IMG/VR virus record: IMGVR_UViG_3300021400_000095
From: a virus
Lineage: Duplodnaviria > Caudoviricetes
Length of the DNA: 64,000 nucleotides
Reading direction: 5' to 3' (one strand)
The notes under the pieces are model-generated. The model did no database searches. It worked only from the letters and a program-made list of their open reading frames with translations, and was not told the DNA's origin. The position numbers and the translations under genes are program-made. Positions 1-22,599 of this stretch are shown piece by piece; positions within the stretch are counted from its first letter, which is position 1, and each line of letters starts with the position of its first letter.

Positions 1-14
1 TAATTATTGTTTTT

Positions 15-87
15 GGAGGTCTGGCAGAGGTGGTCTATGCACTGGACTGAAAATCCAGAGAACCCAGTTCAACTCTGGGGGCCTCCA
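15..87 (+). tRNA. tRNA-Phe(GAA)
   Basis: Cloverleaf: GGAGGTC/GGCCTCC acceptor, CTGGA-CTGAAAA-TCCAG anticodon arm, TTCAACT T-loop; CCA not encoded. Confidence 0.93.
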
Positions 88-102
88 CAACAAAAAAAGG
101 AA

Positions 103-175
103 GACTCCATAGCTCAGTTGGTAGAGCACCACACTTTTAATGTGGGGGTCACGAGTTCGAGCCTCGTTGGGGTCA
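103..175 (+). tRNA. tRNA-Lys(TTT)
   Basis: GACTCCA/TGGGGTC acceptor, CCACA-CTTTTAA-TGTGG, ACGAG-TTCGAGC-CTCGT. Confidence 0.95.
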
Positions 176-433
176 CAAAAGCAATGTTGGCAAATCCAAT
201 TGCTTTTTCTTAAGAGAAAATAACCTTTTCACATTTATTGGTTGTATGTGAATAAATTACTGATGTATTTTAAAAACCAATATGTATCAGTATCTGCAAA
301 GTTTAAGGGTATCTTTGTAACTAAAAGTTAAAACTGTTTGGTTTTTCTTGTAAAACTGGTTTCCAAGCATCTGTTCAACAGTCAGTACCTTTCTGGATGA
401 ATCATATTGCAGGTTAAAAATGATTCATCACAT

Positions 434-505
434 GCAGAGTTAGTACAATGGTTAGTATGCCAGCCTTCCAAGCTGGATATGAGGGTTCAATTCCCTTACT
501 CTGCT
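434..505 (+). tRNA. tRNA-Gly(TCC)
   Basis: GCAGAGT/ACTCTGC-T acceptor, CCAGC-CTTCCAA-GCTGG, GAGGG-TTCAATT-CCCTT. Confidence 0.95.
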
Positions 506-526
506 CAAAGTCATAAAGTGCCCAGG

Positions 527-590
527 GCATGGAAGTATTGCAGGTTGATACTTTTAATATTTAAACTTAGGTTCGAGCCCAGGCCATGCA
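527..590 (+). ncRNA. degenerate tRNA-like element (acceptor + T-loop, no canonical D/anticodon arm)
   Basis: GCATGG/CCATGC stem, AAGTATT..GATACTT hairpin, GGTTCGAGCC T-loop. Confidence 0.4.
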
Positions 591-626
591 GCAAGCAATA
601 CTTTATGAAACAAAATATTTTTCAAT

Positions 627-1000
627 GGGGGTGTTCTTGGTTTTGACACATAACAACCAATAAACAAGCATGTAGTGCTTTGTATGTAGGCACTTAAATA
701 TTAACATTCAACAATTAACTGGCAATTATGCTTATTCTTTTGCTTATTAATCAATACAAGGTATCTGATTAAAACAAATCACAAGGTGATTTGGGCAAAC
801 ATCTTATAAAGATATTTTCTTTGTTATTGTCTTTAATTATTAAGGTGTCATCTTAAACAAAGTGGTATCCAAACAGGGGTTCAATGAATAACATTTTGTT
901 TGTACAATTACAAGGTTATTCTTTTAATGAAATTGTACTAAACATGTAGAAACTTTTGAGGAACTTATGTTGGACAGTGGTTCAACTCCACTCACCTCCA
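627..1000 (+). ncRNA. ssrA: tmRNA; tag ORF 721-750 = GNYAYSFAY*
   Basis: 5' GGGGGTG..TTTTGAC, 3' GACAGTGG-TTCAACT-CCACT-CACCTCCA with G3.U70; resume context TAACT-GGC; AAGCATGTAG and AAACATGTAG motifs. Confidence 0.93.
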
Positions 1001-1006
1001 CTTTTT

Positions 1007-1040
1007 CTTGTTTTTTTGAATATTTATCTGTATATTTGCA
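1007..1040 (+). promoter_or_regulatory. Bacteroidota primary-sigma promoter (TTG...TATATTTG), followed by a boxA-like GTTCTTTGA
   Basis: TAnnTTTG -7 element at 1031-1038. Confidence 0.7.
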
Positions 1041-1060
1041 GTGTATTTGTTCTTTGACAA

Positions 1061-1203
1061 GTTTGTAGTAACATAAATATTTGGTTTAGTAAATGTACAC
1101 CCAAATATACCATGCAAACAGGACTATTTGCTAAGGTCTCTTTAAAAACATTTACAGTTGAGTTAACAACTCATGTTAGCATAAGTAAACACATTTATAG
1201 TCC
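1061..1203 (+). ncRNA. unassigned pseudoknotted structured RNA
   Basis: Two nested hairpin domains with an 8-nt loop-loop complementarity GTAAATGT/ACATTTAC. Confidence 0.5.
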
Positions 1204-1210
1204 AATGTCT

Positions 1211-1517
1211 ATAGGGTTTCTAACAGCTATTACAATAGTGTTGGTCTTTTCCTATTTTTTTTTTTGAAATTGATTAATAAAAAAAGATAGTGGTTTTTGG
1301 TGATTTTGGCCTATTGTCTTCTTACTTTGGATTAGTAAGTTTTTGAAAAACCCCAGGTTTTTGGCTTTTTTTACCCCTGTACTACTTCAAAAACAAAAAG
1401 AAATGAAAAATCTTTATCCCCATAAGTTTAATCCAACTAATTTGGAGGATAAAAAAACAATAGGTTTTCATTACTGGTTGTGGTAGATACCAAGTCTTTT
1501 CCTATTTTTTTTGAAAT
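1211..1517 (+). repeat. two copies (1211-1270, 1460-1517) of ATAGG..TTTC ... GTCTTTTCCTAT-T(n)-GAAAT hairpin unit
   Basis: Direct repeat of both ends with different inner hairpins. Confidence 0.55.
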
Positions 1518-1541
1518 ATAATAAACCACACAAAAGGTTTA

Positions 1542-1674
1542 AGAAAACATGCAGCAATTTTAAATAAAATTAATTTGTCTGTAATACAAAAGATGGTGGG
1601 TTCAAATCCCCCATAAAGAAGTTTGTGGTCCTTCTTTATTAGTTTAATGGTGAGAACTAAAATTTTGTTTTCTG
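1542..1674 (+). ncRNA. circularly permuted tRNA-like RNA (Tyr GTA anticodon arm) clamped by ACAGCAA module (copy 1)
   Basis: Order: anticodon arm 1574-1590, T arm ~1596-1612, loop-closed acceptor 1613-1639, D arm 1642-1657; ends AGAAAAC/GTTTTCT. Confidence 0.8.
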
Positions 1675-1691
1675 TAAAATACCTTATATTT

Positions 1692-1766
1692 GGGAGCTTA
1701 GCTCAGTTGGTTCAGAGCATTTGCCTTACAAGCAAAGGGTCGATGGTTCGAATCCATCAGTTCCCA
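1692..1766 (+). tRNA. tRNA-Val(TAC)
   Basis: GGGAGCT/AGTTCCC, TTTGC-CTTACAA-GCAAA, GATGG-TTCGAAT-CCATC. Confidence 0.95.
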
Positions 1767-1768
1767 CA

Positions 1769-1902
1769 AGAGATACTTGGAGAAGGTACAAGGTAGTTAA
1801 TGCATCAATGGCTACAATCATGGCCTCCATGATAAGAGATAGTTTATGAATTTGAAAACACCAAGTAACAACATGTAGAGGTTGCAAACTCTATATGGCT
1901 CT
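1769..1902 (+). ncRNA. unassigned structured RNA with a T-arm-like hairpin
   Basis: TACTTGG/CCAAGTA (1774-1867) and CATGTAGAG/CTCTATATG (1872-1897) stems. Confidence 0.4.
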
Positions 1903-1912
1903 AATCTTAACA

Positions 1913-2025
1913 AGAAAAGTAACAGCAAAATTTGAAGTTTTTAGATGAGTCATAAGATGATATGTATAGTGAAAACTATATGGGGTCTGAATCCCCAACT
2001 TACCCCAAACTAAAATTCTTTTCTG
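1913..2025 (+). ncRNA. ACAGCAA-module RNA (copy 2)
   Basis: AGAAAAG-TA-ACAGCAA ... CTTTTCTG (compensatory change relative to other copies); inner TATAGT/ACTATA and GGGG-TCTGAAT-CCCC hairpins. Confidence 0.7.
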
Positions 2026-2041
2026 TTTTAAAGTATAAAAT

Positions 2042-2119
2042 GGTGTGTTAGTTCAGCCTGGTTAGAATGCCACACTGTCACTGTGGAGGTCATGGGTTCG
2101 AGTCCCATACATACCGCCA
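2042..2119 (+). tRNA. tRNA-Asp(GTC)
   Basis: GGTGTGT/ACATACC-G-CCA, CCACA-CTGTCAC-TGTGG. Confidence 0.95.
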
Positions 2120-2121
2120 AA

Positions 2122-2214
2122 AGAAAACTTACAGCAATTTATGTTGGATAAAATAAAAAATCTCTAAACTTTTTTATGAAATGGTTCAAATCCATTAAAA
2201 CTAATAGTTTTCTG
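2122..2214 (+). ncRNA. ACAGCAA-module RNA (copy 3) with CTA anticodon-like loop and T arm
   Basis: AGAAAAC-TT-ACAGCAA ... GTTTTCTG; loop CTCTAAA on an A/T stem; AATGG-TTCAAAT-CCATT. Confidence 0.7.
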
Positions 2215-2228
2215 TTTATTTTTAAACT

Positions 2229-2301
2229 GGGGGATTAGCTCAGTTGGCAGAGCACAACATTTGCAATGTTGGGGTCAGGGGTTCAAATCCCCTATCCTCC
2301 A
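2229..2301 (+). tRNA. tRNA-Ala(TGC)
   Basis: GGGGGAT/ATCCTCC-A with G3.U70, CAACA-TTTGCAA-TGTTG. Confidence 0.95.
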
Positions 2302-2335
2302 CTAAATCAATTAATTACAATATTGTAATTATATT

Positions 2336-2410
2336 CATGCCATCGTATAATTGGTTAGTACCCTGCCCTTTCACGGCAGAAATGTTGGGGTTCGAGTCCC
2401 CCTGGCATGA
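2336..2410 (+). tRNA. tRNA-Glu(TTC)
   Basis: CATGCCA/TGGCATG, CTGCC-CTTTCAC-GGCAG, TTCGAGT T-loop. Confidence 0.9.
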
Positions 2411-2425
2411 CAAATTTTTAGTACA

Positions 2426-3364
2426 ATGTCAAAATATGATATTTTATTTAGTGAAAAAGAGAAAGAGAACATAATTAAAGATTATGTTGAAAACTTATTA
2501 TCAATTAAAGAAATTTGTTTTAAATATAGTATAAAAAACAAACAATGGTTATGCAAAAAACTTTTAAAAGGAAAAACAAGAAGTTATAATGAATCTTGTA
2601 AAATTGCACATAAAAAATATCCAGAAAAATTCTTACATACAGAAGAAACAAAAAAATTAATGAGACAAAAAAGGCTTGATTTTATGAAAAATCATCCTGA
2701 AGAAACTGCTTGGAGAAAAAGAAACAAACCTTCATATCCTGAGCAATGTTTTATTGATTTTTTAAATGAATATGGATATTCTGACAAATATTTAATTGAA
2801 AGAGAAAAAAGTATATTTCCATATTTCATTGATTTTGCTTTTAATGATTTAAAGATTGCAGTTGAAATTGATGGTTCACAACATTATCTAGAGGAAGATA
2901 GAATTAAAAGGGATAAGAAGAAAGATGAACTATTAATTTCTTTAGGATGGTCAATATTAAGAATTTCAGCAATTTCTTTAGTCAATAAAGAATTTAAAGA
3001 AATTGATAAAAAGTTATCTGAAATCATAGTTTCTGTTAAAACTGTAGTACAACCATTACAAGTTGGTTTAATAAAGAAAATAAAGGGGAAGAAAAGACTA
3101 TCAAAAAATGGTAAATGGTATGTAAATTACAGAGAAAAATCTGAAAAATATTCAGATAACCAAACAATTAAGCAATATGAAAATTCATTAAGACAGAGAA
3201 AAGTTAAAGACAGACCATCAAAAGAAGAATTATTTGAAATGATGTCAACACAGACATTTAAATCAATTGCTGAAAAATATGGTGTTTCAACAAATGCTAT
3301 TCAAAAATGGTGTAAGGCATATGGGATACCACATAGGAAAAGAGATTACAATAATTTGGGATAG
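2426..3364 (+). CDS. DUF559/Vsr-like endonuclease with C-terminal HTH; putative free-standing homing endonuclease
   Basis: S-x-x-E motif, YFIDFAF..KIAVEIDGSQH..RD...GWSILRI; C-terminal SIAEKYGVSTNAIQKW HTH; inserted between tRNAs. Confidence 0.8.
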   Translation: MSKYDILFSEKEKENIIKDYVENLLSIKEICFKYSIKNKQWLCKKLLKGKTRSYNESCKIAHKKYPEKFLHTEETKKLMRQKRLDFMKNHPEETAWRKRNKPSYPEQCFIDFLNEYGYSDKYLIEREKSIFPYFIDFAFNDLKIAVEIDGSQHYLEEDRIKRDKKKDELLISLGWSILRISAISLVNKEFKEIDKKLSEIIVSVKTVVQPLQVGLIKKIKGKKRLSKNGKWYVNYREKSEKYSDNQTIKQYENSLRQRKVKDRPSKEELFEMMSTQTFKSIAEKYGVSTNAIQKWCKAYGIPHRKRDYNNLG

Positions 3365-3437
3365 TGCTGGAACTGGTATACAGGCATGCCTAAGGAGCAT
3401 GTGGAGATTTCCATGTGGGTTCAAATCCCCTACCCCA
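3358..3437 (+). tRNA. tRNA-Leu(AAG), long variable arm
   Basis: CTG-GAACTGGTATA-CAG D arm, CATGC-CTAAGGA-GCATG, TGGA..TCCA variable arm; T/acceptor pairing slightly imperfect. Confidence 0.8.
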
Positions 3438-3568
3438 TACAAATGAGATACAACATAACAATATAAGTTATTAGAAAAATAATAATATGGGTATATCACC
3501 CATAGTTTAAGTCCCCTCCAAAAAGGCAGAACAATTATTTTAATAATATAATAACAAAATTAATAATT

Positions 3569-3778
3569 ATGGGGTACTTTGTTTTAATTTTTGGTTTCTT
3601 ATTCACATTTATTGCAACAATAATCAAGGTGAATAAGACTTACATTCCAAAGACTGATTGTTCTACAGACATCAAGGATGCTAAGAGCAATTTGATTCAC
3701 ATGAGAACTTTCTTTATACTTGGACCAAGTTTAATTGTAATAAGTATTATACTTATTATTTTAGGTGTAGGATTATAA
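3569..3778 (+). CDS. small two-TM membrane protein
   Basis: 69-aa ORF with two hydrophobic segments. Confidence 0.6.
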   Translation: MGYFVLIFGFLFTFIATIIKVNKTYIPKTDCSTDIKDAKSNLIHMRTFFILGPSLIVISIILIILGVGL

Positions 3779-3826
3779 AGGAAATGTAATATGAATGGGT
3801 ACAAGATGAACTTCTTGTACCATTTT

Positions 3827-3900
3827 ACCCCCTTAGCCCAATTGGAAGAGGCAATAGGTTAAGGACCTATTCAGTGTGAGTTCAAATCTCACAGGGGGTA
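3827..3900 (+). tRNA. tRNA-Leu(AAG), short variable arm
   Basis: ACCCCCT/AGGGGGT-A, GCC-CAATTGGAAGA-GGC, ATAGG-TTAAGGA-CCTAT, GTGAG-TTCAAAT-CTCAC. Confidence 0.88.
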
Positions 3901-3918
3901 CAAATAATATAAATATAT

Positions 3919-4036
3919 TGGGAGGTAGCTCAGTTGGTTAGAGCAGAGTATTTATGTTTTTAGTAACAGAAACTTACAGCAATATTTACAATGCATTTGG
4001 AGCCTCAGGTCATAGGTTCAAGTCCTATCCTCCCAA
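3919..4036 (+). tRNA. tRNA-Pro(TGG)-like gene interrupted by ~44-nt ACAGCAA-module insert (copy 4, ~3949-3992)
   Basis: TGGGAGG/CCTCCCA-A acceptor, GCTC..GAGC D arm, ATAGG-TTCAAGT-CCTAT T arm; insert GTTTTT-AGTAAC-AGAAAC-TTACAGCAA; TTTGG loop (Gln TTG register not excluded). Confidence 0.75.
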
Positions 4037-4041
4037 CAAAT

Positions 4042-4119
4042 GGACATGTAGCTCAGTTGGTTTAGAGCATTTGACTGATATTCAAAAGGTCACAGGTTCA
4101 ACTCCTGTCTTGTCCACCA
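4042..4119 (+). tRNA. tRNA-Ile(GAT)
   Basis: TTTGA-CTGATAT-TCAAA, ACAGG-TTCAACT-CCTGT, encoded ACCA. Confidence 0.93.
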
Positions 4120-4245
4120 AGATAACCTTTCATTGGTCTAGCTAGGTGAAAGGAGAACTAATTTTATGCTGATAGTTTGAAAGCACACAAGTAGAACAGT
4201 TAGCAAAATAAGGTTGTAAAAAGTTGGTGAAAACCCATTATCTTG
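4118..4245 (+). ncRNA. unassigned multibranch structured RNA
   Basis: CAAGATAA/TTATCTTG closing stem; CCTTTCA/TGAAAGG and TGCTGA/TTAGCA inner stems. Confidence 0.45.
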
Positions 4246-4250
4246 ACCAT

Positions 4251-4323
4251 GCAGTAATATATCAATTGGTAGATAGTCTGCTTGCCATGCAGAAGGTTGA
4301 GAGTTCGAGTCTCTTTTACTGCT
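4251..4323 (+). tRNA. tRNA-Gly(GCC)
   Basis: GCAGTAA/TTACTGC-T, TCTGC-TTGCCAT-GCAGA. Confidence 0.94.
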
Positions 4324-4455
4324 CAAAGAGTAACGGACAAGGCTTAGGAGTATGATTAATGTTAAAGGAAGGAGTTTATTAACAAACATTTTTACTTCTT
4401 AATAATCATTAAAACAAGACTGTGGGATGCGAGTGGTTACTTTTTTTATTTAAAT

Positions 4456-4530
4456 GGGGATTATGGTGTAATGGTAGCATGTATGATTGTGGTTCATCAG
4501 GTCACAGTTCGAGCCTGTGTTTTCCCCCCA
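4456..4530 (+). tRNA. tRNA-His(GTG)
   Basis: G-1, ATGA-TTGTGGT-TCAT, CACAG-TTCGAGC-CTGTG, C73-CCA. Confidence 0.9.
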
Positions 4531-4556
4531 TAAAAAATTATTTTTTTTTAGAAAAA

Positions 4557-4590
4557 TTTGTTTATTTAAAATAATATTTATATATTTGTA
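4557..4590 (+). promoter_or_regulatory. Bacteroidota primary-sigma promoter
   Basis: TTTG 4557-4560 and TATATTTG 4581-4588, immediately before module copy 5. Confidence 0.75.
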
Positions 4591-4594
4591 GAGA

Positions 4595-4697
4595 AGAAAA
4601 CAGACAGCAAATTAAGTTTAAGATTGTAGGTTCAATTCCTTCTGTTTTTAAAGAAATTTAAAGGCAAAAATAGGTAATCCAAAAACAAAGTTTTCTG
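4595..4697 (+). ncRNA. ACAGCAA-module RNA (copy 5), permuted T-acceptor-D-like order without anticodon arm
   Basis: AGAAAAC-AG-ACAGCAA ... GTTTTCTG; GTAGG-TTCAATT-CCTTC; TGTTTTTA/TAAAGGCA closed stem. Confidence 0.7.
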
Positions 4698-4709
4698 CTT
4701 GAAATACAA

Positions 4710-4865
4710 GCCGCCTTAGTATAGTGGTATTACAACTGACTTGCTACAGAGTGATTCACTGAGAAGAATTGCAAGGTATTAAAAGTGGTGAGCAGTACAG
4801 ATGATAGTTCAACTCTATCTACCTTGCCTAATCAGTAGATGTTGGTTCGATTCCGACAGGCGGCT
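4710..4865 (+). tRNA. tRNA-Thr(TGT) interrupted in the anticodon by an 85-nt tRNA-like insert (4744-4828)
   Basis: GCCGCCT/AGGCGGC-T acceptor; ACTGA-CTTG|TAA-TCAGT reconstitutes the classical Thr anticodon arm; GTTGG-TTCGATT-CCGAC. Confidence 0.85.
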
Positions 4866-4906
4866 CAAATTTTCTGAACACATAGGAAAATTTTTGTGTA
4901 CACAAT

Positions 4907-5061
4907 GCCTGTATAGACTGAAATGGTGAAAGGGAGTAACAAACTGCTAAACAAATTTTAGTGAATGCATTAAGTTAAACTTTGAGTTAGTAAGTGTGAA
5001 AGGCTTAAGCAGCACCCTCTTTTGATAGAGGGGGATGTGGGTTCAATTCCCACTACAGGTA
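4907..5061 (+). tRNA. atypical tRNA with ~80-nt D-loop insert and 8-nt anticodon loop (TTTTGATA; Gln or Ser reading)
   Basis: GCCTGTA/TACAGGT-A acceptor, CCCTC/GAGGG anticodon stem, GTGGG-TTCAATT-CCCAC. Confidence 0.65.
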
Positions 5062-5068
5062 CAAAAAT

Positions 5069-5142
5069 TGTGGGGTGATAGCAGTTGGTAGCTAGTCAGG
5101 CTCATAACCTGAAGGTCATGGGTTCAAGTCCCATCCCCGCAA
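5069..5142 (+). tRNA. tRNA-fMet(CAT), initiator-type
   Basis: TGTGGGG/CCCCGCA-A, AGCAGTTGGTAGCT D arm, TCAGG-CTCATAA-CCTGA. Confidence 0.9.
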
Positions 5143-5186
5143 CAACAGAACAAATATTTTTTCCTTATCATTTCTTTGATAAGTAT

Positions 5187-5475
5187 AACACAAACTTGTC
5201 CTATAGTCCCTCAAATATAGGACCTTGCCATGTGCAATTAGGTAAAGGCATAAAATAGTGTACATATGTTTATGCATAATAAGAGACCATTCCAAAGTGT
5301 TGGGTTGCTAATTAAACATGTACTCAGCCATTCTTGGCTAGTCAGAATATAACAAATAAATCTGGAGAGAAGCACCTTGCCAACAGTTAAGTAAAACCTT
5401 GTAAAGAAAATTATTTCCAAAGGTCATCCATTTAAAATGGTTAAACAGTCGCAGTGATGTAGTAAAGTTTGTGTT
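5187..5475 (+). ncRNA. unassigned ~290-nt structured RNA
   Basis: 11-bp terminal stem AACACAAACTT/AAGTTTGTGTT plus several inner hairpins. Confidence 0.6.
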
Positions 5476-5486
5476 TTTTTATTATT

Positions 5487-5672
5487 TAGTGCTGTAAAAA
5501 GTTTGGCAGATTAAAGATTAGGTTGCAAATGAAAGTTATCCTCCCTATTGGCTGTGTATTTTTATAATACTGAACTCTAGTTGCATAAGCCTTGTATGAG
5601 CAGCATAACTAAAATTATTTAGTTCCAAACATTCAGGGAGTAAGGCATTAATAAGGGCACTGAACAGCACTA
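5487..5672 (+). ncRNA. unassigned ~185-nt structured RNA
   Basis: TAGTGCTGT/ACAGCACTA terminal stem, CTCCCT/AGGGAG inner stem. Confidence 0.55.
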
Positions 5673-5676
5673 TTAT

Positions 5677-5753
5677 GTACCTGTGGCAGAGTGGTCAAAT
5701 GCAAAGGTCTGCAAAACCTTGATTCATTGGTTCAAATCCAATCAGGTACTCCA
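5677..5753 (+). tRNA. tRNA-Cys(GCA)
   Basis: GTACCTG/CAGGTAC-T-CCA, AAGGT-CTGCAAA-ACCTT. Confidence 0.95.
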
Positions 5754-5812
5754 AAAAAGCATATAACAATTTTTGAATTTTTGTAATTTAGAAGTTGTTA
5801 TTTTTTTTTTAT

Positions 5813-5897
5813 GGAGGGTTGGGTGAGTGGCTTAAACCAGCAGTTTGCTAAACTGCCGACCCACAAGGGTCCACTGGTTCAAATCCAGTACCCTCCG
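5813..5897 (+). tRNA. tRNA-Ser(GCT)
   Basis: GGAGGGT/ACCCTCC-G, GCAGT-TTGCTAA-ACTGC, long variable arm. Confidence 0.95.
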
Positions 5898-5937
5898 CAT
5901 TAACAAAAAGAATTGTATTTACCAAATTTTAATTAGC

Positions 5938-5968
5938 AGCACATCTTTAATAGGTGTGCTTTTTTTTT
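5938..5968 (+). terminator. intrinsic terminator closing the RNA island
   Basis: AGCACATC/GGTGTGCT hairpin + T run. Confidence 0.8.
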
Positions 5969-5980
5969 GTTTAGTATTAA

Positions 5981-5989
5981 ACTATTTAT
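5981..5989 (+). promoter_or_regulatory. ACTATTTAT phage promoter-like motif (also 10079-87 -, 18124-32 -, 27823-31 +, 35817-25 -, 39492-500 -)
   Basis: Same 9-mer about 20-40 nt upstream of six start codons in gene orientation. Confidence 0.65.
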
Positions 5990-6011
5990 ATAAAAATATA
6001 TTAATTTAGGT

Positions 6012-6872
6012 ATGACTTTATTTGAGGACATAGTACAGGAATTTGACAACAATAGTTTCATTTTGACAAGGGATTGGTTATATGAGAAATACAATGAAAT
6101 GAATCAGAGTTTGTTCAGTGGAAGTCTTGGTGAATGTGATTTGGACATATTCACCACAGGAAGGGGTGCAAATGGAAGGGTTTTAGGATGGTTTTCAATG
6201 AAAATGAGTGGTTTAAAGTACAACAAGACAACAAGGAGGTTATATCTTGTAGATTATTGGGGTGATAAGGAATATGTTACCAAGTCAAATTTTTATGAAA
6301 CCACAAGTCCATTAATTAGTTTAAATGGAAATTATACATGGAGTGAGAAGGCAGCATTATCAACATTAGTTCATGAGATGTGTCATTATTATACATTTAT
6401 GTATGGCATTGCACCAAAGCAAGCACATGGGCCTGAGTTCAGGGAAATTGCATATATAGTATCAAAGAGGTCAAATGGTATATTTACAGTACAGAGGTTA
6501 GCAAGTGCAGAGCAGATGGGTGAAATGCAGTTAGATGCTGCAATACAGGCAAAGAATGATGAAAGGAAAGAGAGGAAAATGAGTAAGACAATACCAATGT
6601 TCATTTACTATAATGATGGAAAAATTGGATTAACAATGGCAAATAGTCAGAAGGTTGTTGATTATATTGTACATTATGAGTACAAAAATACTTCAACAAA
6701 TGGTGCAATAAAGATTAACATATGTACTGATGAGAAACTAAAGGATTTTTTGGTAAATGATAAAGGATACAAGAAGACACAGACATCATATAGATATTGG
6801 GATATAACAGGAAAGTCATGGTTAAATGAGCTTGACAAATATCCAATGAAGACTATATTTTCCAGAGAATAA
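6012..6872 (+). CDS. SprT-like zinc metalloprotease
   Basis: TLVHEMCHYY..HGPEF motif; N-terminal YNEMNQSLFSG. Confidence 0.85.
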   Translation: MTLFEDIVQEFDNNSFILTRDWLYEKYNEMNQSLFSGSLGECDLDIFTTGRGANGRVLGWFSMKMSGLKYNKTTRRLYLVDYWGDKEYVTKSNFYETTSPLISLNGNYTWSEKAALSTLVHEMCHYYTFMYGIAPKQAHGPEFREIAYIVSKRSNGIFTVQRLASAEQMGEMQLDAAIQAKNDERKERKMSKTIPMFIYYNDGKIGLTMANSQKVVDYIVHYEYKNTSTNGAIKINICTDEKLKDFLVNDKGYKKTQTSYRYWDITGKSWLNELDKYPMKTIFSRE

Positions 6873-6892
6873 CATAATTAGTTAATAGTATT

Positions 6893-7042
6893 ATGGATTT
6901 TAGTAAATTAAATGAAGAGCAATTACATGAACTTGTCAGGGAAAGGGTTTTTGATAAGTTAAGTAAGGAGTATATGAAAAACAGTAATGACAATAAAGAA
7001 ATCCCTGTTGGGATTAATTTAGGGGTTATTGATTTAGAATAA
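6893..7042 (+). CDS. small hypothetical protein (49 aa, MDFSKLNEEQLHELVRE...)
   Basis: Translated by hand; fills the intergenic gap in the same orientation. Confidence 0.55.
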   Translation: MDFSKLNEEQLHELVRERVFDKLSKEYMKNSNDNKEIPVGINLGVIDLE

Positions 7043-7069
7043 TAAAAAAATAAAAAACAAGTTTAAGAA

Positions 7070-7411
7070 ATGTTAGTAACAGCATTATTATCACAATTAT
7101 TAATAGCAGTTCCAAGTATTATTTTAGGGACACAGACATTAACATCAGTATTCAATGGTTTTTTCAAAGTAGATAAGCCAGGTTTAAGGCAATTAGTATC
7201 TTGGATTTTTGCAATTTTAATTGCAATTGGATTTGTTGCAACAGGTAATTTAACATTTGGTTTACCAGTTGTTTGGGAATACATTGTTGGTATTGTTTCA
7301 GGTGTTTTAGCAGGTGGTGCTGCTAATGGTTTTTATGATTGGGCAGCAATTTCTGCAATTTTCAATTCATTTGAAAATGTAATTAGGGGAGAAAAGAGAG
7401 TAAAGGAATAA
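7070..7411 (+). CDS. holin-like membrane protein
   Basis: Three TM segments, GVLAGGAANGFYD motif, charged C-terminus. Confidence 0.6.
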   Translation: MLVTALLSQLLIAVPSIILGTQTLTSVFNGFFKVDKPGLRQLVSWIFAILIAIGFVATGNLTFGLPVVWEYIVGIVSGVLAGGAANGFYDWAAISAIFNSFENVIRGEKRVKE

Positions 7412-7509
7412 AATAAACAAGATTAATTTGTGCAAGGATTGGCAATATTGTCAATCCTTTTTTGTTTTCCTAATATGTTTTTGTATATTTGTAAAAAAAT
7501 ATTAGGAAT

Positions 7510-8664
7510 ATGAATAAAGGATATATTTGTACAAGTTCTTATGGTATTAAAGCACCAATTATTAAGGAAGGTGATGATTTAGTAAATATTATAGTGAAGT
7601 CTGTTCTTGATGCAACTTATGTTGACAGTACTTATAATATGGTTAAAAATGATAGTATTAAAGAGGGGTTTGAGACACAAGTGGTGAAAAATTATGACCT
7701 TGATGACAGGGACATTATTGGTATTACTGAGAGTGTTATTGCCAGGGCACAGGGAAATTATGTTACAGTTGATGAGGTAGCAGAGAACATAAAGGAACTT
7801 GTAGGTGATGTTAAGAAAATAATAGTAGTAAATCCAATTTATAGTAGGAATAGATTTAGTTTAATACTTAAGGCAATTGCAAGGGCTGCTAGTGAATCTA
7901 TTGCCATATACATGCCTGAATTTGATGAGGTTGGAAATCCATCAGGTGTTAATCCATTTACTGGTGTTGATATAAAGGCATATTACAAGGAACTTGTTGA
8001 AAAAGAAGGTAAAAATTGTTATTTTAGGGAAGGAAGCCATTATGACTATGACAATGAAAACAATGCCATTGAGATTTATTGTGGGCTTCATGATTATAAG
8101 GAATGGAAAGAAAAATATGGTGATGAAAGGCACATTACATTGGCAGATATTTGTTCAGACAAGTGTGAATATGGCCTTCTTGGTTCAAACAAGGCAACTG
8201 ATGAAAAGTTAAAGTTATTTCCAAACAAGGTAAAGGCTGAAAAGTTATTATATGAGGTACAAAAAAGAATATTAGAAAAGACAGGGAAATTAGTATATGT
8301 TGCATCATATGGTGATGGTTGTTTCAAGGATGCTGTTGGTGGTATTTGGGAGTTTGCTGACCCTGTAACAATGCCAGCATATACAAATCCTGAGGTATTT
8401 GAATCAAGGCCAAATGAAATTAAGATTAAGGCATTTGCTGATGACCAATATAGGGATTTAAGTGGAAATAAACTAATTAATGCAATAAAGGATAGTATTA
8501 AATCAAAGGATAATATGCTTATTGGCAAGATGGCAAGTCAAGGAACAACACCAAGAATTGTCAGGGATTTGGTTGCAAGTTTAATGGATTTAACATCAGG
8601 TAGTGGAGACAAGGGAACACCAATTGTATTAGTTAAGGGGTATTTTAATAATTATGCTAAGTAA
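7510..8664 (+). CDS. coenzyme F420-0:L-glutamate ligase (CofE)-like protein
   Basis: GIKAPIIKEGDDL, TESVIARAQG, SLMDLTSGSGDKGTPIVLVKGYF motifs; TATATTTG promoter at 7484-7491. Confidence 0.8.
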   Translation: MNKGYICTSSYGIKAPIIKEGDDLVNIIVKSVLDATYVDSTYNMVKNDSIKEGFETQVVKNYDLDDRDIIGITESVIARAQGNYVTVDEVAENIKELVGDVKKIIVVNPIYSRNRFSLILKAIARAASESIAIYMPEFDEVGNPSGVNPFTGVDIKAYYKELVEKEGKNCYFREGSHYDYDNENNAIEIYCGLHDYKEWKEKYGDERHITLADICSDKCEYGLLGSNKATDEKLKLFPNKVKAEKLLYEVQKRILEKTGKLVYVASYGDGCFKDAVGGIWEFADPVTMPAYTNPEVFESRPNEIKIKAFADDQYRDLSGNKLINAIKDSIKSKDNMLIGKMASQGTTPRIVRDLVASLMDLTSGSGDKGTPIVLVKGYFNNYAK

Positions 8665-8670
8665 GAAAAT

Positions 8671-9027
8671 ATGAAAACAATTAATATAGAAATTGAAAAT
8701 GCATACATGGGTGATGCATGTCAATTTAAATTTAATACATCTGAAGAATATTCAAGTAATATTTCTTTAAAAGAAGTTATTACAGACTATATAAACAGGA
8801 TACACATATTATGTAATTCAGAGGTAAAAAGTTTTGAATATTCTGAAGATTTAGGTGCATTGTATTTTGATGATGAAATTGAAATAAATTTTGTTAATAA
8901 TATTGATACCCTTCTTGATGATTGCCAAAAACTTTTTGATAAAGGTGGTAATATATTTTGCTTTAAAGCATGTTATGAAAATGTAATTTGTTGGTTTAGT
9001 TTTATAATAAAAGAAGAAGAGTCTTAA
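8671..9027 (+). CDS. hypothetical protein
   Basis: ORF in operon context. Confidence 0.7.
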   Translation: MKTINIEIENAYMGDACQFKFNTSEEYSSNISLKEVITDYINRIHILCNSEVKSFEYSEDLGALYFDDEIEINFVNNIDTLLDDCQKLFDKGGNIFCFKACYENVICWFSFIIKEEES

Positions 9028-10058
9028 ATAAGGCTCTTCTTTATTTGTTTAATGGATTCCAGAATCATATATTTAATATCTTGTTCTGTAATTTTAATTT
9101 TTCTTTCTGCAACTATTGGGTCTGACAATCTATCAGGTGTAAGAATTTTATTTTTCATAAGTCTTTTCCTAACTTCTAAGGTATCACTATTCATAACATA
9201 GAAATTATCATCAACTTGTATTTGATAATAATCAACACCTTTTATATCAACAATTGTTGGTTTATGTATAGTATAATCAAAGCCATTTATATTATCAACA
9301 ATTGTTTCTTTATCACCAAAAGTAGAATCATCAAACCAAGATTTTTTTACTTTAGTAAGTATAGGTTTTTGTGCTTTATCATTAAAATTTGATTTATTAA
9401 TTATATTTTCTTTTCCAAATTTTTCAAATCTTATATTAAGACCAAAAAGATTTTTAATGTCATTATAATCATAAGTTGGTTTACTATTAGAAACAACTTC
9501 ATCTATAAATGTTTCAAATTTAGCATTAGGATTATTTGGGTCATAAACAACATTATATACATTTAATGCCATTTTACTATCACTACTATCAAATCCTTTA
9601 TTGTTAACTTTTGGGTCAATAAGAACATTTAACACAAATTGGTTTGCTTTAGTTTTATTATCACCATTATTTGACCCAAACCAAACATTTGGCCTTAATG
9701 GATGGTCAGCAACTCTTAAATTAAATGCCACTTTTTTACCTTGATAGCCAGGCACATTCAAAAGATAAAAATAGTTAGAGGTGTACCAAGCATCAGCACA
9801 AATCCAATCAAAGTTATTTTTATAACTATTAATATCATTGTTTTTTTTATATCCTATTTTATGCTTAAATGCAAAATTTGCAGCATCACCTTTTCTTTTT
9901 AATAAGTATAAGAAGAAATTAATATCAGTATTAATTTTATCAATTTCTTCTTCATTCTTTATCCATTCTTTTGTTCCATCTGAATCATGATAAAAGCCTA
10001 TACCAAGGTCAGGTCTTGCATCAGAAAGAATAAAAACTTCATTTAAATTTTGTTTCAT
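9024..10058 (-). CDS. hypothetical protein, putative virion-internal protein
   Basis: C-terminal KIKITEQDIKYMILESIK motif; LRVADH; ACTATTTAT motif upstream. Confidence 0.7.
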   Translation of the reverse strand: MKQNLNEVFILSDARPDLGIGFYHDSDGTKEWIKNEEEIDKINTDINFFLYLLKRKGDAANFAFKHKIGYKKNNDINSYKNNFDWICADAWYTSNYFYLLNVPGYQGKKVAFNLRVADHPLRPNVWFGSNNGDNKTKANQFVLNVLIDPKVNNKGFDSSDSKMALNVYNVVYDPNNPNAKFETFIDEVVSNSKPTYDYNDIKNLFGLNIRFEKFGKENIINKSNFNDKAQKPILTKVKKSWFDDSTFGDKETIVDNINGFDYTIHKPTIVDIKGVDYYQIQVDDNFYVMNSDTLEVRKRLMKNKILTPDRLSDPIVAERKIKITEQDIKYMILESIKQIKKSLI

Positions 10059-10135
10059 ATTAATAACAACATTTTCATATAAATAGTTGTTAAATTAATA
10101 TAATTTTTGTATTTTTGTAAAAAAAGGATTTAATT

Positions 10136-10378
10136 ATGAGCACATTAGTTATTGTTTTGATTGTTGTTGCAGTATTGATTGCAGCATGTTTAATTAGTTA
10201 TCATTATGGTGAACATCATGAACTTCACAAGGTAAGGGCTGAATTCAGTGATGTTTTAAAGCACCTTGGTCCAAGTAGCAGATTCAGACAGGGCTTTGAA
10301 GCAGCAGAAAAAATTATTGATGTTATGGATGCTGATTTTAATGGTAATTATAGAGAAAAAGAGGATGTTGAAGATTAA
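10136..10378 (+). CDS. small N-terminally anchored membrane protein
   Basis: Hydrophobic N-terminus; TATTTTTG promoter at 10110-10117. Confidence 0.7.
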   Translation: MSTLVIVLIVVAVLIAACLISYHYGEHHELHKVRAEFSDVLKHLGPSSRFRQGFEAAEKIIDVMDADFNGNYREKEDVED

Positions 10379-10380
10379 TT

Positions 10381-10395
10381 TGGCACATTTCTTGT
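10381..10395 (+). promoter_or_regulatory. sigma54-like -24/-12 promoter (also 18226-40, 20047-61, 22559-73)
   Basis: TGGCAY-N5-TTG(T/A) with exact spacing in four positions upstream of genes. Confidence 0.6.
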
Positions 10396-10420
10396 AGTAT
10401 AATAATAAAAACACAAAAAT

Positions 10421-10651
10421 ATGGCTAAAAATACATTTACATTAGATTCATTTAAAGAAATGCTCAAAGAAGATAAAGACTTCAAAGAGCAGATTGTTAA
10501 GAAAAATGATTTTATTGACTTGGACAATGGTGTTATGAGGATTCATTCAGAAAATATAAACAAATATCTTGAAAAATATTCTTGTAAAGATGCTGAAGAC
10601 CTTGAAAACACATTGTGGTTTAACTATGGTATTTTTTGTCAAGTAATTTAA
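10421..10651 (+). CDS. hypothetical protein
   Basis: ORF in operon context. Confidence 0.7.
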   Translation: MAKNTFTLDSFKEMLKEDKDFKEQIVKKNDFIDLDNGVMRIHSENINKYLEKYSCKDAEDLENTLWFNYGIFCQVI

Positions 10652-10657
10652 GTACAT

Positions 10658-10876
10658 ATGTTTGGTAAAATTAAAAAGAAAGAATTATATAAGGTTAATG
10701 TTGATATAAGAACAAAAAGCAACCCATATGTTATTGCAAATAATACATATTTTGTTGTTGCAAAAGACATTTATGATGCAAGAGGAAAAGTAAGAAAGTT
10801 GCTTAAGGTTAACAAAGATATACAGCAAATTTCAATATGTAGTTCTTCATTAGTAAATGATGAAATTTATGAGTAA
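10658..10876 (+). CDS. hypothetical protein
   Basis: ORF in operon context. Confidence 0.65.
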   Translation: MFGKIKKKELYKVNVDIRTKSNPYVIANNTYFVVAKDIYDARGKVRKLLKVNKDIQQISICSSSLVNDEIYE

Positions 10877-11810
10877 CAAAGCAAAATATCTTAGATTTAC
10901 AAAAGATTACAGTTTACCTATTAATATTTTTAATGATGAACTGTTTTCTTATTATAGGGAATTGTATAAGGATTTCTGGCCAGTTCATGAAGAAAATTTA
11001 ATGAACAATGAAATTGAACAACTTGATGGAAATGTTGATGCTTGGTTGGCAACATATGCAACAATAAGGGATAATATTATAAACACCCTTGAAGCAAGTG
11101 ACAAGTATCAAGAATTCAACAATAAAGACATTTCCATGTATGATATTCCAAATATTGGCCTTGGTGAACATAGCCTTTATAGTGAAGAAACTGATGGAAA
11201 AATGTTTATTTCACTTGATTTGAAAAAAGCCAATTTTCAAGCCTTAAAATATGTTGGTGTTCTTCCTTATGCTTCATATGAGGAATTTATTAAGGCATAT
11301 GGTGGAACTGAATATTTTTCAAAATCAAAATATTTGAGACAGGTTATTTTTGGTAAACTTAATCCAAAAAGACAAATCAAAGTTGAAAAATTCCTTATTT
11401 ATCAACTTTATCTTGATTGTATTAGAGAATATGGTTTTACTTCACCTTATTCATTAAATAGTGATGAACTTGTCTTTAATGTTAATGAAAACAATGTACC
11501 ATCAGAAAAAAAACTTAAATATATTGAAGAAAAAGTTAAATTCTTATATGGTATTGATGTTAGAGTTGAGGTTGTGAAAATTAAAAGGCTTCCTATTGTT
11601 AATAGTAATGGTAATAAAGTGGATTGCTATATAAGGAAAAATATATATACAGGTGAAGAAAAATTGAAAAAGGCTTCTACTACATTTTTCCCACAAATTT
11701 GGAAACTTTATAAAGGTCTTGAAATTACAGAAAAAGATAGAATGTTTTTCTTTGAGGACCAAATTGCAACTTTTAATGAAAATTTAAAACTTGCTGAAAA
11801 AACTGATTAA
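10869..11810 (+). CDS. hypothetical protein with DNA-polymerase-palm-like motifs
   Basis: FISLDLKKANFQ, SKYLRQVIFG, LNSDELVF resemble polymerase motifs A/B/C. Confidence 0.5.
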   Translation: MSNKAKYLRFTKDYSLPINIFNDELFSYYRELYKDFWPVHEENLMNNEIEQLDGNVDAWLATYATIRDNIINTLEASDKYQEFNNKDISMYDIPNIGLGEHSLYSEETDGKMFISLDLKKANFQALKYVGVLPYASYEEFIKAYGGTEYFSKSKYLRQVIFGKLNPKRQIKVEKFLIYQLYLDCIREYGFTSPYSLNSDELVFNVNENNVPSEKKLKYIEEKVKFLYGIDVRVEVVKIKRLPIVNSNGNKVDCYIRKNIYTGEEKLKKASTTFFPQIWKLYKGLEITEKDRMFFFEDQIATFNENLKLAEKTD

Positions 11811-11826
11811 AAATAAATATTAGTAT

Positions 11827-12576
11827 ATGGATACTTTAAAAATATTAGCAACAAGTGACTTTCATGGACACTTGCCTGATATAACAACACCTTTTGATTT
11901 GTTGTTAATATGTGGGGATATTTGCCCTGCACATGACCACTATTATGCATATCAAATCAACTGGTTTCAACATACCTTTGCTAATTGGATAAATAAACTA
12001 CCATTTAAAAATGAGTGGAGCAAAGTTGTGATGGTTGCAGGAAATCATGATTTTTTTTTAGAGAGGTTAAGTTCTTTAAGTGAAGAAATCAGATGTTTTA
12101 ACATAACAACTAATAACAGGGTTGTTATTCTTAAAAATGAAGAATATGATTATGAATATTTGTCTGATGATGGTATTAAAACCTTAAAGATTTTTGGTAC
12201 ACCTTATTGTCATATTTTTGGTAATTGGGCTTTTATGATATCAGATGAAAGTCTTGAAAAGAAGTTTTCATTTATACCTGACAATTGTGATATATTTATT
12301 TCACATGATTCACCATCAACAAATGGTCTTGGGACTATAAATGAAGGTTGGAATGCAGGTACTGATGCTGGTAACATACCACTTACCAATATACTTAAAG
12401 AAAAGAAACCAAAATACTTTTTTAGTGGGCACATTCATACAGGTAATCATAATTTTGAAAAAATAGACAATACTTGGATGGCAAATGTATCTTATATTAA
12501 TGAAGGGTATAGAGTTGCTTTTCCTGTGCTTGAATTTGAAATAGATAAAGAAACAAAGATGTATGGAGAACATTGA
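11827..12576 (+). CDS. calcineurin-like metallophosphoesterase
   Basis: SDFHG, CGD, AGNHD, SHDSP, GHIH motifs. Confidence 0.9.
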   Translation: MDTLKILATSDFHGHLPDITTPFDLLLICGDICPAHDHYYAYQINWFQHTFANWINKLPFKNEWSKVVMVAGNHDFFLERLSSLSEEIRCFNITTNNRVVILKNEEYDYEYLSDDGIKTLKIFGTPYCHIFGNWAFMISDESLEKKFSFIPDNCDIFISHDSPSTNGLGTINEGWNAGTDAGNIPLTNILKEKKPKYFFSGHIHTGNHNFEKIDNTWMANVSYINEGYRVAFPVLEFEIDKETKMYGEH

Positions 12577-14103: not shown

Positions 14104-14814
14104 TTAATTACTATTTAAAAGTACATTTATTTGGTTAGAATAAACTTGCATGCTTTTAATAACTTCCCTTGCACTAGGGACATCTTCTTTTTCTTTAAAT
14201 ATAACACCAAGACATGCAGTTGGAAGGCCATTTTTGCCATGCATTACATACATACCCATATATGCAACTTCTTCATTTTTTAATCTATAGTACATTTCAG
14301 GGTCACTTTCCATGCAATCATCAATAGGACCATACCAATATCCATGTTCAATAACATAAGAGGCCCAAGGATATCTTGAAAGTCTGAAATTCTTATATTC
14401 TGATTCAATAATATCATATTTATTTCTAGGGTCCATATATGTTAAGTCTGCATATAAGAAAGGAAGATTATTCAAATTTGAACCACCATTATGTGCTTCC
14501 AAAATATATGCTCTATCAGCATTAATACTTGACCTAAAATCAGAAAGTAAACTTCTAATTTGTGGGTCTGCTTGCAGTCTTTGTTTTATTCCTTCTTCAT
14601 GTTTTTCAATTGAATATTCTTGGAATTTTTCAAATACAGTTCCAGGATTAAGGATAAAATATCCAACACAGGCCGCAATAAACAAAGTTAAAAGACTTGT
14701 AAAAGTACCTTTAAGTCCTTCCTTATTAATGAATCTTTTGATTCTTTCCATCAAGCCAACAACATTATTAATCTCAGTTGTTGTGGTTTTCATAGTTTTC
14801 TTATCCTCTGCCAT
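14104..14814 (-). CDS. single-TM protein with GAF-like extracytoplasmic domain (possible T4-T-type holin)
   Basis: One TM segment followed by ADRAYILEAHNGG...LGVIF. Confidence 0.5.
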   Translation of the reverse strand: MAEDKKTMKTTTTEINNVVGLMERIKRFINKEGLKGTFTSLLTLFIAACVGYFILNPGTVFEKFQEYSIEKHEEGIKQRLQADPQIRSLLSDFRSSINADRAYILEAHNGGSNLNNLPFLYADLTYMDPRNKYDIIESEYKNFRLSRYPWASYVIEHGYWYGPIDDCMESDPEMYYRLKNEEVAYMGMYVMHGKNGLPTACLGVIFKEKEDVPSAREVIKSMQVYSNQINVLLNSN

Positions 14815-18101: not shown

Positions 18102-18266
18102 TTTTGTATATTTTTATTCATAGATAAATAGTTTTATTATCTAAAAAAGACTTAATTATTTGCTTTTCTTAGTTTTATTTTGTATTTTTGAATTGTCAAA
18201 ATATTATTATAAAATAATATGCTTTTGGCATGATTTTTGATAATGAATAAGGAAAATAATTTTTAT

Positions 18267-19859
18267 ATGAAAGAAATGTTTAAAATATCTGAAAATGCAA
18301 ATCCAAACTACCTTGCATTGATTACTAAAATTGGTGAAACCCATCCAATTGAAGGTGCTGATAGGCTTCTTAGAACCACTGTTAATGGTTTTGACATTGT
18401 TGTTGGTAATAACATGAAAGAAGGGGATATTGTTGTATATGTTCCTGTGGAATCTGCACTTTCTGAAAAGTTCCTTTCTACAAATAACTTGTATGAACTT
18501 GATGAATGGCAAAAAAATGCCAATGCATCTGAAATTGGTGTTCTTTATACCAAACTTAATGAACTTAAGTCTGAAGGTAAAAAGGATGAAGCAGATGCTG
18601 TTTATAAGGAAATTAAATCTAAGGTTGGATATTTTACCAATAAGAATAGGGTTAGAATTATTAACCTTAGAGGTTGCCCTTCTAATGGCTTTGTTGCTGG
18701 TGTTGATTCTCTTGTAAAATATAATTCTGAACTTGCTAATTCTAACTGGGAAGAACTTGTTGGAACTTATTTTAATTATGTAGGTGATGATGAGTTTTGT
18801 AAGAAATACATCCCTACTATCAAAGATAATAATGTTCCTCAAAATAATAGGAAAGGTACTAAAAAAGCACAAAAGAAACTGCAAAGGTTTGATAGACTTG
18901 TCCCTGGTCAGTATGAATTCCATTATGACACAATCAGACTTGATGCAACCAATATGCAAACTTTTATTCAACCAACTGATACTGTAACTATTACAGTAAA
19001 GGTACATGGTGCTCTTGCTGAAATGGCAAATGTTCTTATTAATAAGAAACTTTCTGTTTGGGAGAAAATTAAGAAATTCATTGGTTTTCATGTTGAAACC
19101 ACTGAATATGGAAATGTCTATTCTTCACATAAGGTAATCAAAAATAGATATATTAATAAGGGTGAAATTAATAATTTCTATGGTGCTGACATTTGGGGTT
19201 GTGTAAATAGGGACTTTGGTAAGTACCTTTCTGAAGGCATGACTGTTTATGGTGAGGTTGCTGGTTATGTTGAAGGCTCTGATAAAATGATTCAAAAAAA
19301 TCATGACTATGGTTGTAAGCCTGGTTGTTGGAAATTCATGCCTTATAGAATTACTGAAACTGACAAATATGGTAATTCAAGAGAATGGAACATTTCTGAA
19401 ATTTTTAAGTGGACCATTGATTTAATGGTTGCTCACCCTGAACTTGAAGATAAAATTCTTCCTATTAAGATACTTTATCATGGAAGAATTTGTGACTTGT
19501 ACCCTGATATTGAAATTGATGAAAAATGGTATAGTAATTTCCTTGAAAGACTTCATAATGATAAGAACTTCTATATGGAGTTAAAGGAACCCATGTGCCA
19601 TCTTTATGAGGAAGAAGCAAATGCAGCAAAGAAAGCACTTGATAAGGCAATTGCTGATGGTGAATCAAAGAAAATCATTGCTAAACTTGAAAAAGAGTTT
19701 AACAAATGGGAAGATATGAGAGCACCAAGGGAAGGTGTTGTTATTAGAATTGATAATGATGCCAAGGCAGAAGCTTTTAAAGTTAAGACTAATGCCCACT
19801 ACGGGGTTGAATGTGCACAACATGATGCTGGTGAAGTTGATATTGAGGAAATTTCATAA
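18267..19859 (+). CDS. ATP-dependent RNA ligase (Rnl2/DRB0094-like) with N-terminal OB/tRNA-binding domain
   Basis: HPIEGADRL OB motif; motif I TVKVHG, YGEVAG, REGVVIR, FKVK. Confidence 0.85.
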   Translation: MKEMFKISENANPNYLALITKIGETHPIEGADRLLRTTVNGFDIVVGNNMKEGDIVVYVPVESALSEKFLSTNNLYELDEWQKNANASEIGVLYTKLNELKSEGKKDEADAVYKEIKSKVGYFTNKNRVRIINLRGCPSNGFVAGVDSLVKYNSELANSNWEELVGTYFNYVGDDEFCKKYIPTIKDNNVPQNNRKGTKKAQKKLQRFDRLVPGQYEFHYDTIRLDATNMQTFIQPTDTVTITVKVHGALAEMANVLINKKLSVWEKIKKFIGFHVETTEYGNVYSSHKVIKNRYINKGEINNFYGADIWGCVNRDFGKYLSEGMTVYGEVAGYVEGSDKMIQKNHDYGCKPGCWKFMPYRITETDKYGNSREWNISEIFKWTIDLMVAHPELEDKILPIKILYHGRICDLYPDIEIDEKWYSNFLERLHNDKNFYMELKEPMCHLYEEEANAAKKALDKAIADGESKKIIAKLEKEFNKWEDMRAPREGVVIRIDNDAKAEAFKVKTNAHYGVECAQHDAGEVDIEEIS

Positions 19860-20065
19860 TGAAAAGGGTTGTTAAATATATTCCAGTTGACCCATATTAT
19901 TCTGAACAAACTCAGACCTATATTGGGTCAACTGCTTCTGAAGTTGATAATATTCAATATGAAACTGAAGAATTTATGGCAAGAAATCATACAAATTTGG
20001 GTATGATTTATAAAACTGAAACAATTTTTGACAATACAAATGAGTTTGGCATGAATTTTGATTAA
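19859..20065 (+). CDS. hypothetical protein
   Basis: TAATG-coupled to the ligase. Confidence 0.65.
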   Translation: MKRVVKYIPVDPYYSEQTQTYIGSTASEVDNIQYETEEFMARNHTNLGMIYKTETIFDNTNEFGMNFD

Positions 20066-20119
20066 GTTAAAATAGAAAATTAACAAATACATTATTAACA
20101 ACAAAAAAAAATTAGAACA

Positions 20120-20974: not shown

Positions 20975-20986
20975 ATATAAATTAAT

Positions 20987-21271
20987 ATGAGTGATTTGCT
21001 AAATAAGAAATTTTTTAAGCACAAGAAGTTGAATACATTTTATCTCAAAAGGTTCAAGACTGAATCAAAGAGTAATTTTCAGGTTTGGAAGAAAAATGGT
21101 AAATATTATGTTGCAATAGGTGTAATATCTGTTGGTGACAGTCTTTATGCTGAAGAAACCATTGATTATGGGACTAACATTATTGAAGCAAGGAAGTATT
21201 GTGATGAACTTAGGCAAAATTATATCTTAAATGAAGTAAAAAGATATAAGAATTTAAAGAAAGTATATTAA
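20987..21271 (+). CDS. hypothetical protein
   Basis: ORF in operon context. Confidence 0.65.
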   Translation: MSDLLNKKFFKHKKLNTFYLKRFKTESKSNFQVWKKNGKYYVAIGVISVGDSLYAEETIDYGTNIIEARKYCDELRQNYILNEVKRYKNLKKVY

Positions 21272-22533: not shown

Positions 22534-22599
22534 TTTGTGAGAATTTTTTTTTTATTTTTGGCATATTTTTTGTATATTTGTAAAAAGGTACAATATAAT

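Follow-up and report, generated by a model that had tools for sequence, protein, structure and literature searches.

The tRNA array of the phage analysed here contains a gene with the acceptor, D and T arms of a tRNA and an insertion in its anticodon stem, which raises the question of whether this is an intron-bearing tRNA or an RNA that keeps its insert. The gene occupies positions 3919-4036 of the window, by which we mean the whole analysed stretch of 64,000 nucleotides. Positions 1-6000 are identical to part of a 352,732-bp ENA contig that also encodes the window's proteins, and upstream regions of this contig were reached by stepwise identity look-ups. To judge from its size, tail genes and tRNA array and from the sample names, the phage appears to be a jumbo phage of the sheep rumen. 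The parts of the RNA are as follows.

3919..4036, + strand: linear tRNA-like RNA; acceptor pairs U1-A72, G2-C71 and G3-C70, with A73; CCA not encoded
3928..3944, + strand: D arm
3946..3948, + strand: anticodon-stem positions 27-29 (GAG), complement of 4004-4006
3949..3992, + strand: 44-nt insert at position 29/30, consisting of an A/U linker, the handle hairpin, TTACAGCAA and a second A/U linker
3956..3973, + strand: handle hairpin, 6 bp here (family: 7 bp); the conserved position-8 G is at 3963
3974..3982, + strand: conserved NNACAGCAA word, a putative protein-binding site
3993..4003, + strand: lower anticodon stem (30-31/39-40) and 7-nt loop with A32, U33, G37 and A38; anticodon UUG at 3997-3999
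4012..4028, + strand: T arm

A preliminary description of this locus had proposed a tRNA-Pro with intact acceptor, D and T arms and an insert of about 44 nt. The architecture is as described: the acceptor strands lie at 3919-3925 and 4029-4035 with A73, the Rfam tRNA model matches at 49.8 bits with a long insertion, and the insert spans exactly 3949-3992, with the expected GTTTTT/AGAAAC hairpin and its 6-nt loop at 3956-3973 followed by TTACAGCAA. The proline identity had to be given up, as the in-register anticodon is UUG (Gln) and no NGG anticodon is found in a 7-nt loop on a 5-bp stem; UGG is out of register and disrupts the stem. ARAGORN misses the unspliced gene, and when 3949-3992 is removed it calls the remaining 74 nt, a perfect cloverleaf, as tRNA-Gln(UUG) with a 5-bp stem and an A32-A38 loop. 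In this restored stem, positions 27-29 (GAG) and 30-31 (GC) pair fully with 39-43, while in the unspliced fold the split anticodon stem has a pair probability below 0.01. An outer helix GAGTATT/AATATTT, also proposed earlier, can form, and its computed energy of -22.7 kcal/mol is not distinguishable from the -21.9 kcal/mol of the fold with the split anticodon stem. As a family feature this helix was rejected, since it consumes the GAG that the anticodon stem needs and just 1 of 51 homologues can form it.

The combination of a stem and the word ACAGCAA, referred to here as the handle, is found on eight RNAs of this phage's tRNA array. Three of them, upstream, carry a lone anticodon-type hairpin, one is the linear RNA at 3919-4036, and the following four, in the window, bear the handle as a terminal stem.

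1542..1674, + strand: permuted tRNA enclosed by a terminal handle, with GUA anticodon arm, T arm, looped acceptor and D arm
1913..2025, + strand: terminal handle showing a compensatory change of C:G into G:C
2122..2214, + strand: terminal handle, one hairpin and a T arm
4595..4697, + strand: terminal handle, T arm and hairpins, without an anticodon arm

The motif is not a chance occurrence, given that the window holds 8 matches where 0.96 are expected; four of the eight lie inside the tRNA cluster. Ordinary genes for tRNA-Gln(UUG) and tRNA-Pro(UGG) are present in the same array, upstream of the window.

Beyond this phage, pattern scans of viral contigs for CAGCAA between D and T arms returned 120 distinct linear tRNA bodies with a handle, a few chance hits included. 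Conservation of CAGCAA in the scanned sets is built in, because the word is part of the search patterns, but relatives retrieved with the tRNA body alone, with no CAGCAA in the query, still carry it (L262, L276, L281), and two others (L271, L283) carry a decayed form. The latter (L271:7388-7503 and L283:1396-1511) have the same body and hairpin and are possibly natural handle mutants. In the 7-bp handle stem, 742 of 791 cells are paired (shuffle maximum 484), and the compensatory changes are of many types. A G at position 8 follows the stem in 95 of 113 linear forms and also closes the 3' strand of 84% of terminal-stem forms; both stem and G are kept in linear and permuted layouts alike. Since these counts contain related sequences, the p-values given here are overstated, while effect sizes are large. 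Linkers around the handle range from 4 to 16 and from 5 to 18 nt. Removal of the insert restores a 5-bp stem with a U33/R37 loop in 77 of the 120 linear forms, compared with 1.7 in shuffles; a canonical anticodon arm is not obtainable in the other 43, and in about one third of linear forms the handle stands in place of the loop.

The 311 terminal-stem candidates are a noisy set, 206 of which have no T arm. Anticodon loops occur on these candidates about ten times more often than by chance (UUU 22 versus 2.1; UGG 9 versus 0.4). Bodies that share the acceptor of the 3919-4036 RNA display UUG, UGU, UUU or no loop at all, and anticodons are swapped on a shared acceptor 7-mer in 6 of 9 cases, a figure that is weak alone next to 58 of 123 for ordinary tRNAs. 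Across the family, redundancy with ordinary tRNAs was seen at 6 of 13 partial loci, a figure that points neither way. Blastn against named phages returned ordinary tRNAs only, and literature searches, which covered few subscription journals, yielded no description of the ACAGCAA handle motif. A pattern of D arm plus handle also matches 73 bacterial or archaeal genome-bin contigs (L399-L471), many from gut Clostridia, which may be true members, prophages or chance matches.

The linear RNA had further been described as topologically the same molecule as the permuted RNA at 1542, with a functionally fixed module position and with the two forms either interconvertible through a circular intermediate or derived by retro-permutation. 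The first point holds: in the RNA at 1542 the module forms a terminal stem that encloses a permuted tRNA, and the permuted RNA L016:315-510 shares with the 3919-4036 RNA its acceptor stem, A73, the sequence of positions 27-29 and a near-identical D arm, while L114 and L138 are permuted forms with the same 29/30 junction. L016:315-510 itself has an encoded CCA after the body and no canonical anticodon loop. The module position is constrained, lying at 28/29 or 29/30 in 58 of the 77 restorable linear forms, but it is not fixed, and in the RNA at 1542 the handle sits at 26/27. Neither a circular RNA nor retro-permutation is needed, since 25 of 105 terminal-stem units with a T arm are arranged head-to-tail, at most 45 nt from the next handle, and DNA duplication followed by trimming can yield the linear form. 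At the junction of two such units, the sequence already has the form of an insert-bearing linear tRNA. A permutation route at the DNA level is thus available, which does not imply that it was actually used.

The gene neighborhoods of handle RNAs point to a protein partner. Of about 215 loci collected with the RNA pattern alone, 78 contain a gene of the DUF2828/DUF7788 families, and such genes adjoin handle RNAs in many phages. When 74 loci were instead selected by the protein, 20 had a handle on the sense strand within 500 nt upstream of the gene (p 1.6e-4; controls: 3 antisense, 0.5 shuffled, 0 with a reversed motif) and 54 had none in that interval. The 64,000-nt window contains no such gene; the same contig encodes a DUF2828/DUF7788 protein of 537 aa, 70.6 kb upstream of the 3919-4036 RNA. 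This gene has a handle in its own leader (L477:19609-19654) that ends 3 nt before the ATG. In other phages, similar leaders with a handle overlap the ribosome-binding site. On the basis of the gene linkage and of the handle in its own leader, we infer that the DUF2828/DUF7788 protein binds the handle, and the placement of the leader handle 3 nt before the start codon suggests that the protein represses its own mRNA.

The protein is predicted to adopt a Ro60-like ring fold. The AlphaFold model used was that of a homologue (pLDDT 90; 56% identical to this phage's protein over 248 residues), for which all top Foldseek ranks are Ro60/Rsr/TROVE structures (E 8e-9 to 1e-5). The best of these is Ro60 of the Thermus phage phiLo, at 15% identity, and the best PDB match by sequence is again Ro60, a weak one (E 0.003). 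DUF2828/DUF7788 matches occur in 691 phage records and also in plants, and no functional paper was found in the literature under either name. Unannotated handle RNAs also lie beside the DUF2828 gene in Listeria phage P200 (L473:7655-7960) and in Felix O1 (L472:13878-13930, 14419-14535).

A Ro60-fold protein with RNA partners recalls the bacterial Y RNAs, and the handle RNA may work like a YrlA Y RNA (PMC4201824) without belonging to that family. It was not filed as YrlA because the RF02553 model gave no match at E<=1 in window positions 1-12000 and none at the gathering score in six homologous loci, and because the Rsr-binding motif GNCGAAN0-1G is found in 0 of 51 linear and 0 of 311 terminal-stem forms. 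Two further marks of YrlA RNAs give a mixed picture: the tRNA-like D, T and acceptor arms are present in the 3919-4036 RNA, and for the second mark, a Ro60 orthologue encoded within about 4 kb, the evidence points both ways. The partner has a Ro60-like predicted fold and is a DUF2828 rather than a TROVE protein, and its gene is 70.6 kb away here and adjacent in many other phages. The likeness consists in a tRNA elbow (D, T and acceptor-like arms) with a protein-binding stem on the anticodon-arm side, and in several RNAs per Ro60-fold gene. It extends to the open acceptor end of the 3919-4036 RNA, as in Mycobacterium smegmatis YrlA, where RNase P opens the acceptor and CCA is gained (Chen et al., 2014, PMC4201824). 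The handle differs from GNCGAAN0-1G in consisting of a stem, ACAGCAA and G, its partner is DUF2828/DUF7788 and not a Pfam TROVE protein, the anticodon loop is kept below the handle, and the gene is in ordinary tRNA order. The phage phiLo similarly encodes a Ro60 ring with the small partner RNAs Yrl1 and Yrl2 (PMC12135203; PDB 9KOP, 9L5Y), but these use a CGAA motif, and CAGCAA is unmentioned in PMC12135203.

The reading that we favor, with moderate confidence, is that the RNA at 3919-4036 is a stable tRNA mimic whose retained handle would be bound by the Ro60-fold ring and which would act as bait or in counter-defence. That the handle is retained within a ribonucleoprotein seems quite probable from the sequence comparisons, and the bait or counter-defence role is proposed more tentatively. 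The gene is co-directional with the tRNA cluster and its acceptor, D and T arms are intact; its transcript would be trimmed by RNase P and receive CCA as the neighboring tRNAs do. The ring protein would then bind the handle through the 7-bp stem, the position-8 G and NNACAGCAA, much as Rsr binds YrlA RNAs, and free handle RNA would relieve the self-repression of the protein. In the weakest step, the particle might show the tRNA elbow and a non-decoding anticodon loop as a bait for, or an inhibitor of, antiviral nucleases of the host. For the family at large, it is a more speculative suggestion that one Ro60-fold protein displays, through the ACAGCAA handle, a library of exchangeable tRNA pieces, be they whole tRNAs, permuted ones or single anticodon loops, to counter host nucleases or, less likely, that a new protein-guided form of bacterial tRNA splicing is at work.

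An unlikely alternative retains the same particle and makes the RNA a RYPER-like tether or gate from the ring to a host exoribonuclease such as PNPase or to RNA-repair enzymes, with the tRNA shape serving stability and docking only and not as bait. Such a role has been demonstrated for Y RNAs (PMC4201824) and for the Ro60-Yrl complex of a Thermus phage, which dampens host PNPase (PMC12135203), and in two cultured phages the DUF2828 gene has RNA ligase genes close by. A tether leaves unexplained why diverse, genuine-looking anticodon loops are kept and swapped, and it is because these varied loops are kept that bait is favored.

It is similarly doubtful that the insert represents a new class of short tRNA intron, cut at 29/30 and sealed by a phage RNA ligase into tRNA-Gln(UUG), with the Ro60-like protein perhaps as a splicing platform and permuted genes maturing through a circle. 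Excision does restore a 5-bp stem and 7-nt loop here and in 77 of 120 homologues, 58 of them at 28/29 or 29/30, and splicing is the simpler explanation for a split stem that is perfectly complementary in these 77 (null 1.7) yet barely populated in the unspliced RNA. The 5' junction is biased to G|UA, U1-A72 and A73 agree with this phage's own tRNA-Gln, genes for an RNA ligase, an HD+kinase protein, an enzyme of the CCA-adding type and RlaP lie in the window, and short unexplained tRNA introns have been reported in Lak phages (PMC6784885). The would-be spliced products, however, seem unlike decoding tRNAs: A32, present in the 3919-4036 RNA, is found in 20 of 51 linear handle RNAs versus 11 of 975 ordinary tRNAs of the same loci, simple synthetase identity elements fit the anticodon in 22 of 43 handle RNAs versus 334 of 391 ordinary tRNAs, and Ser and Leu anticodons occur on bodies with short variable arms. 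The variable linkers also speak against an intron, as do the many handles that enclose no tRNA or occupy the mRNA leader of the DUF2828/DUF7788 gene. The tRNA-Gln(UUG) product would be redundant in this phage, and no insert-free allele of the 3919-4036 body was found.

Archaeal non-canonical tRNA introns and permuted algal tRNAs depend on a bulge-helix-bulge. With these and with the Lak phage introns (PMC6784885) the handle RNAs share a short anticodon-stem insert, the removal of which restores a cloverleaf, and a permuted order. They differ in that the bulge-helix-bulge is missing (a 4-bp central helix was found at the junctions of only 1 of 51), the insert itself is conserved and the products are without decoding features. 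On balance, the insert is probably kept rather than spliced, and its excision is unlikely.

That the RNA is a non-functional by-product, a tRNA-looking relic of a tandem permuted-gene junction, is very improbable: head-to-tail arrays are common (25 of 105) and the A/U-rich handle of this RNA folds weakly, but every arm is intact, the halves of the split stem complement each other fully, the rumen relative L281 keeps the same body and junction region, and the same layout in 120 RNAs with covariation largely refutes this explanation.

If the retained handle and its ring protein do form a bait, the tRNA look-alike may help the phage to counter host defence nucleases. The best-placed system is phage Bas63, which has a protein with a published phenotype together with unannotated handle RNAs, so that counter-defence is testable in the laboratory. 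Bas63 gp130 belongs to the same Pfam families, DUF2828/DUF7788, and has been described as a Ro60-like counter to Ppl, deletion of which reportedly sensitises the phage to Ppl; that study, in which no RNA was tested, goes no further than proposing that some of the genes annotated as tRNAs are possibly Y RNAs (bioRxiv 10.1101/2024.10.10.617714). The handle RNAs, not identified there, lie just downstream of the gp130 gene, in the tRNA cluster between annotated tRNAs, at about 82235-82300, 82690-82765 and 82777-82910 of MZ501086. The link from Ppl to a tRNA bait is loose, since Ppl is described, in a title cited in PMC13434339, as a sensor of DNA overhangs and NTP depletion. A decoy specific for PARIS was also considered. 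The commonest anticodons of the linear forms are GUU, UGU and UUU (8 each of 51), which are AriB targets (bioRxiv 10.1101/2025.02.04.636281). This candidate was dropped because ordinary tRNAs that carry the D arm of the search pattern show an enrichment of the same three anticodons (GUU 25, UGU 10 and UUU 18 of 158). These results point to RNA partners for DUF2828/DUF7788 and correct a likely annotation error, in that handle genes look like intron-bearing tRNAs.

Several other features of this phage may be recorded. A tRNA-Thr(UGU) body at 4710-4865 has an insert of about 84 nt in its anticodon; the insert contains a tRNA-like element that includes a T arm, lacks an ACAGCAA handle and resembles the tRNA inserts of Lak phages (PMC6784885). 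At about 4889-5061 lies a tRNA-like gene with about 95 nt inserted in its D-loop region and an anticodon loop of 8 nt, which ARAGORN misses and Rfam matches weakly. A tRNA-Arg-like body (L218:5465-5990) has an interruption of about 460 nt in its anticodon loop that resembles a group I intron and is a candidate for one. L218:2000-2072 is a tRNA with a CUA (amber) anticodon, yet the window's long ORFs are read with table 11. The tRNA array is interrupted at 2426-3364 by a DUF559/HNH-type endonuclease gene, a homologue of which (49% identical) lies within the tRNA array of a related phage. The RNA repair cluster at 18237-26662 comprises the RNA ligase, an HD+AAA_33 kinase, the CCA-adding-type nucleotidyltransferase and RlaP, and a Thg1 gene is located on the contig upstream of the window. 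Finally, the phage tmRNA at 627-1003 encodes a tag peptide that ends in aromatic residues instead of the usual alanines.
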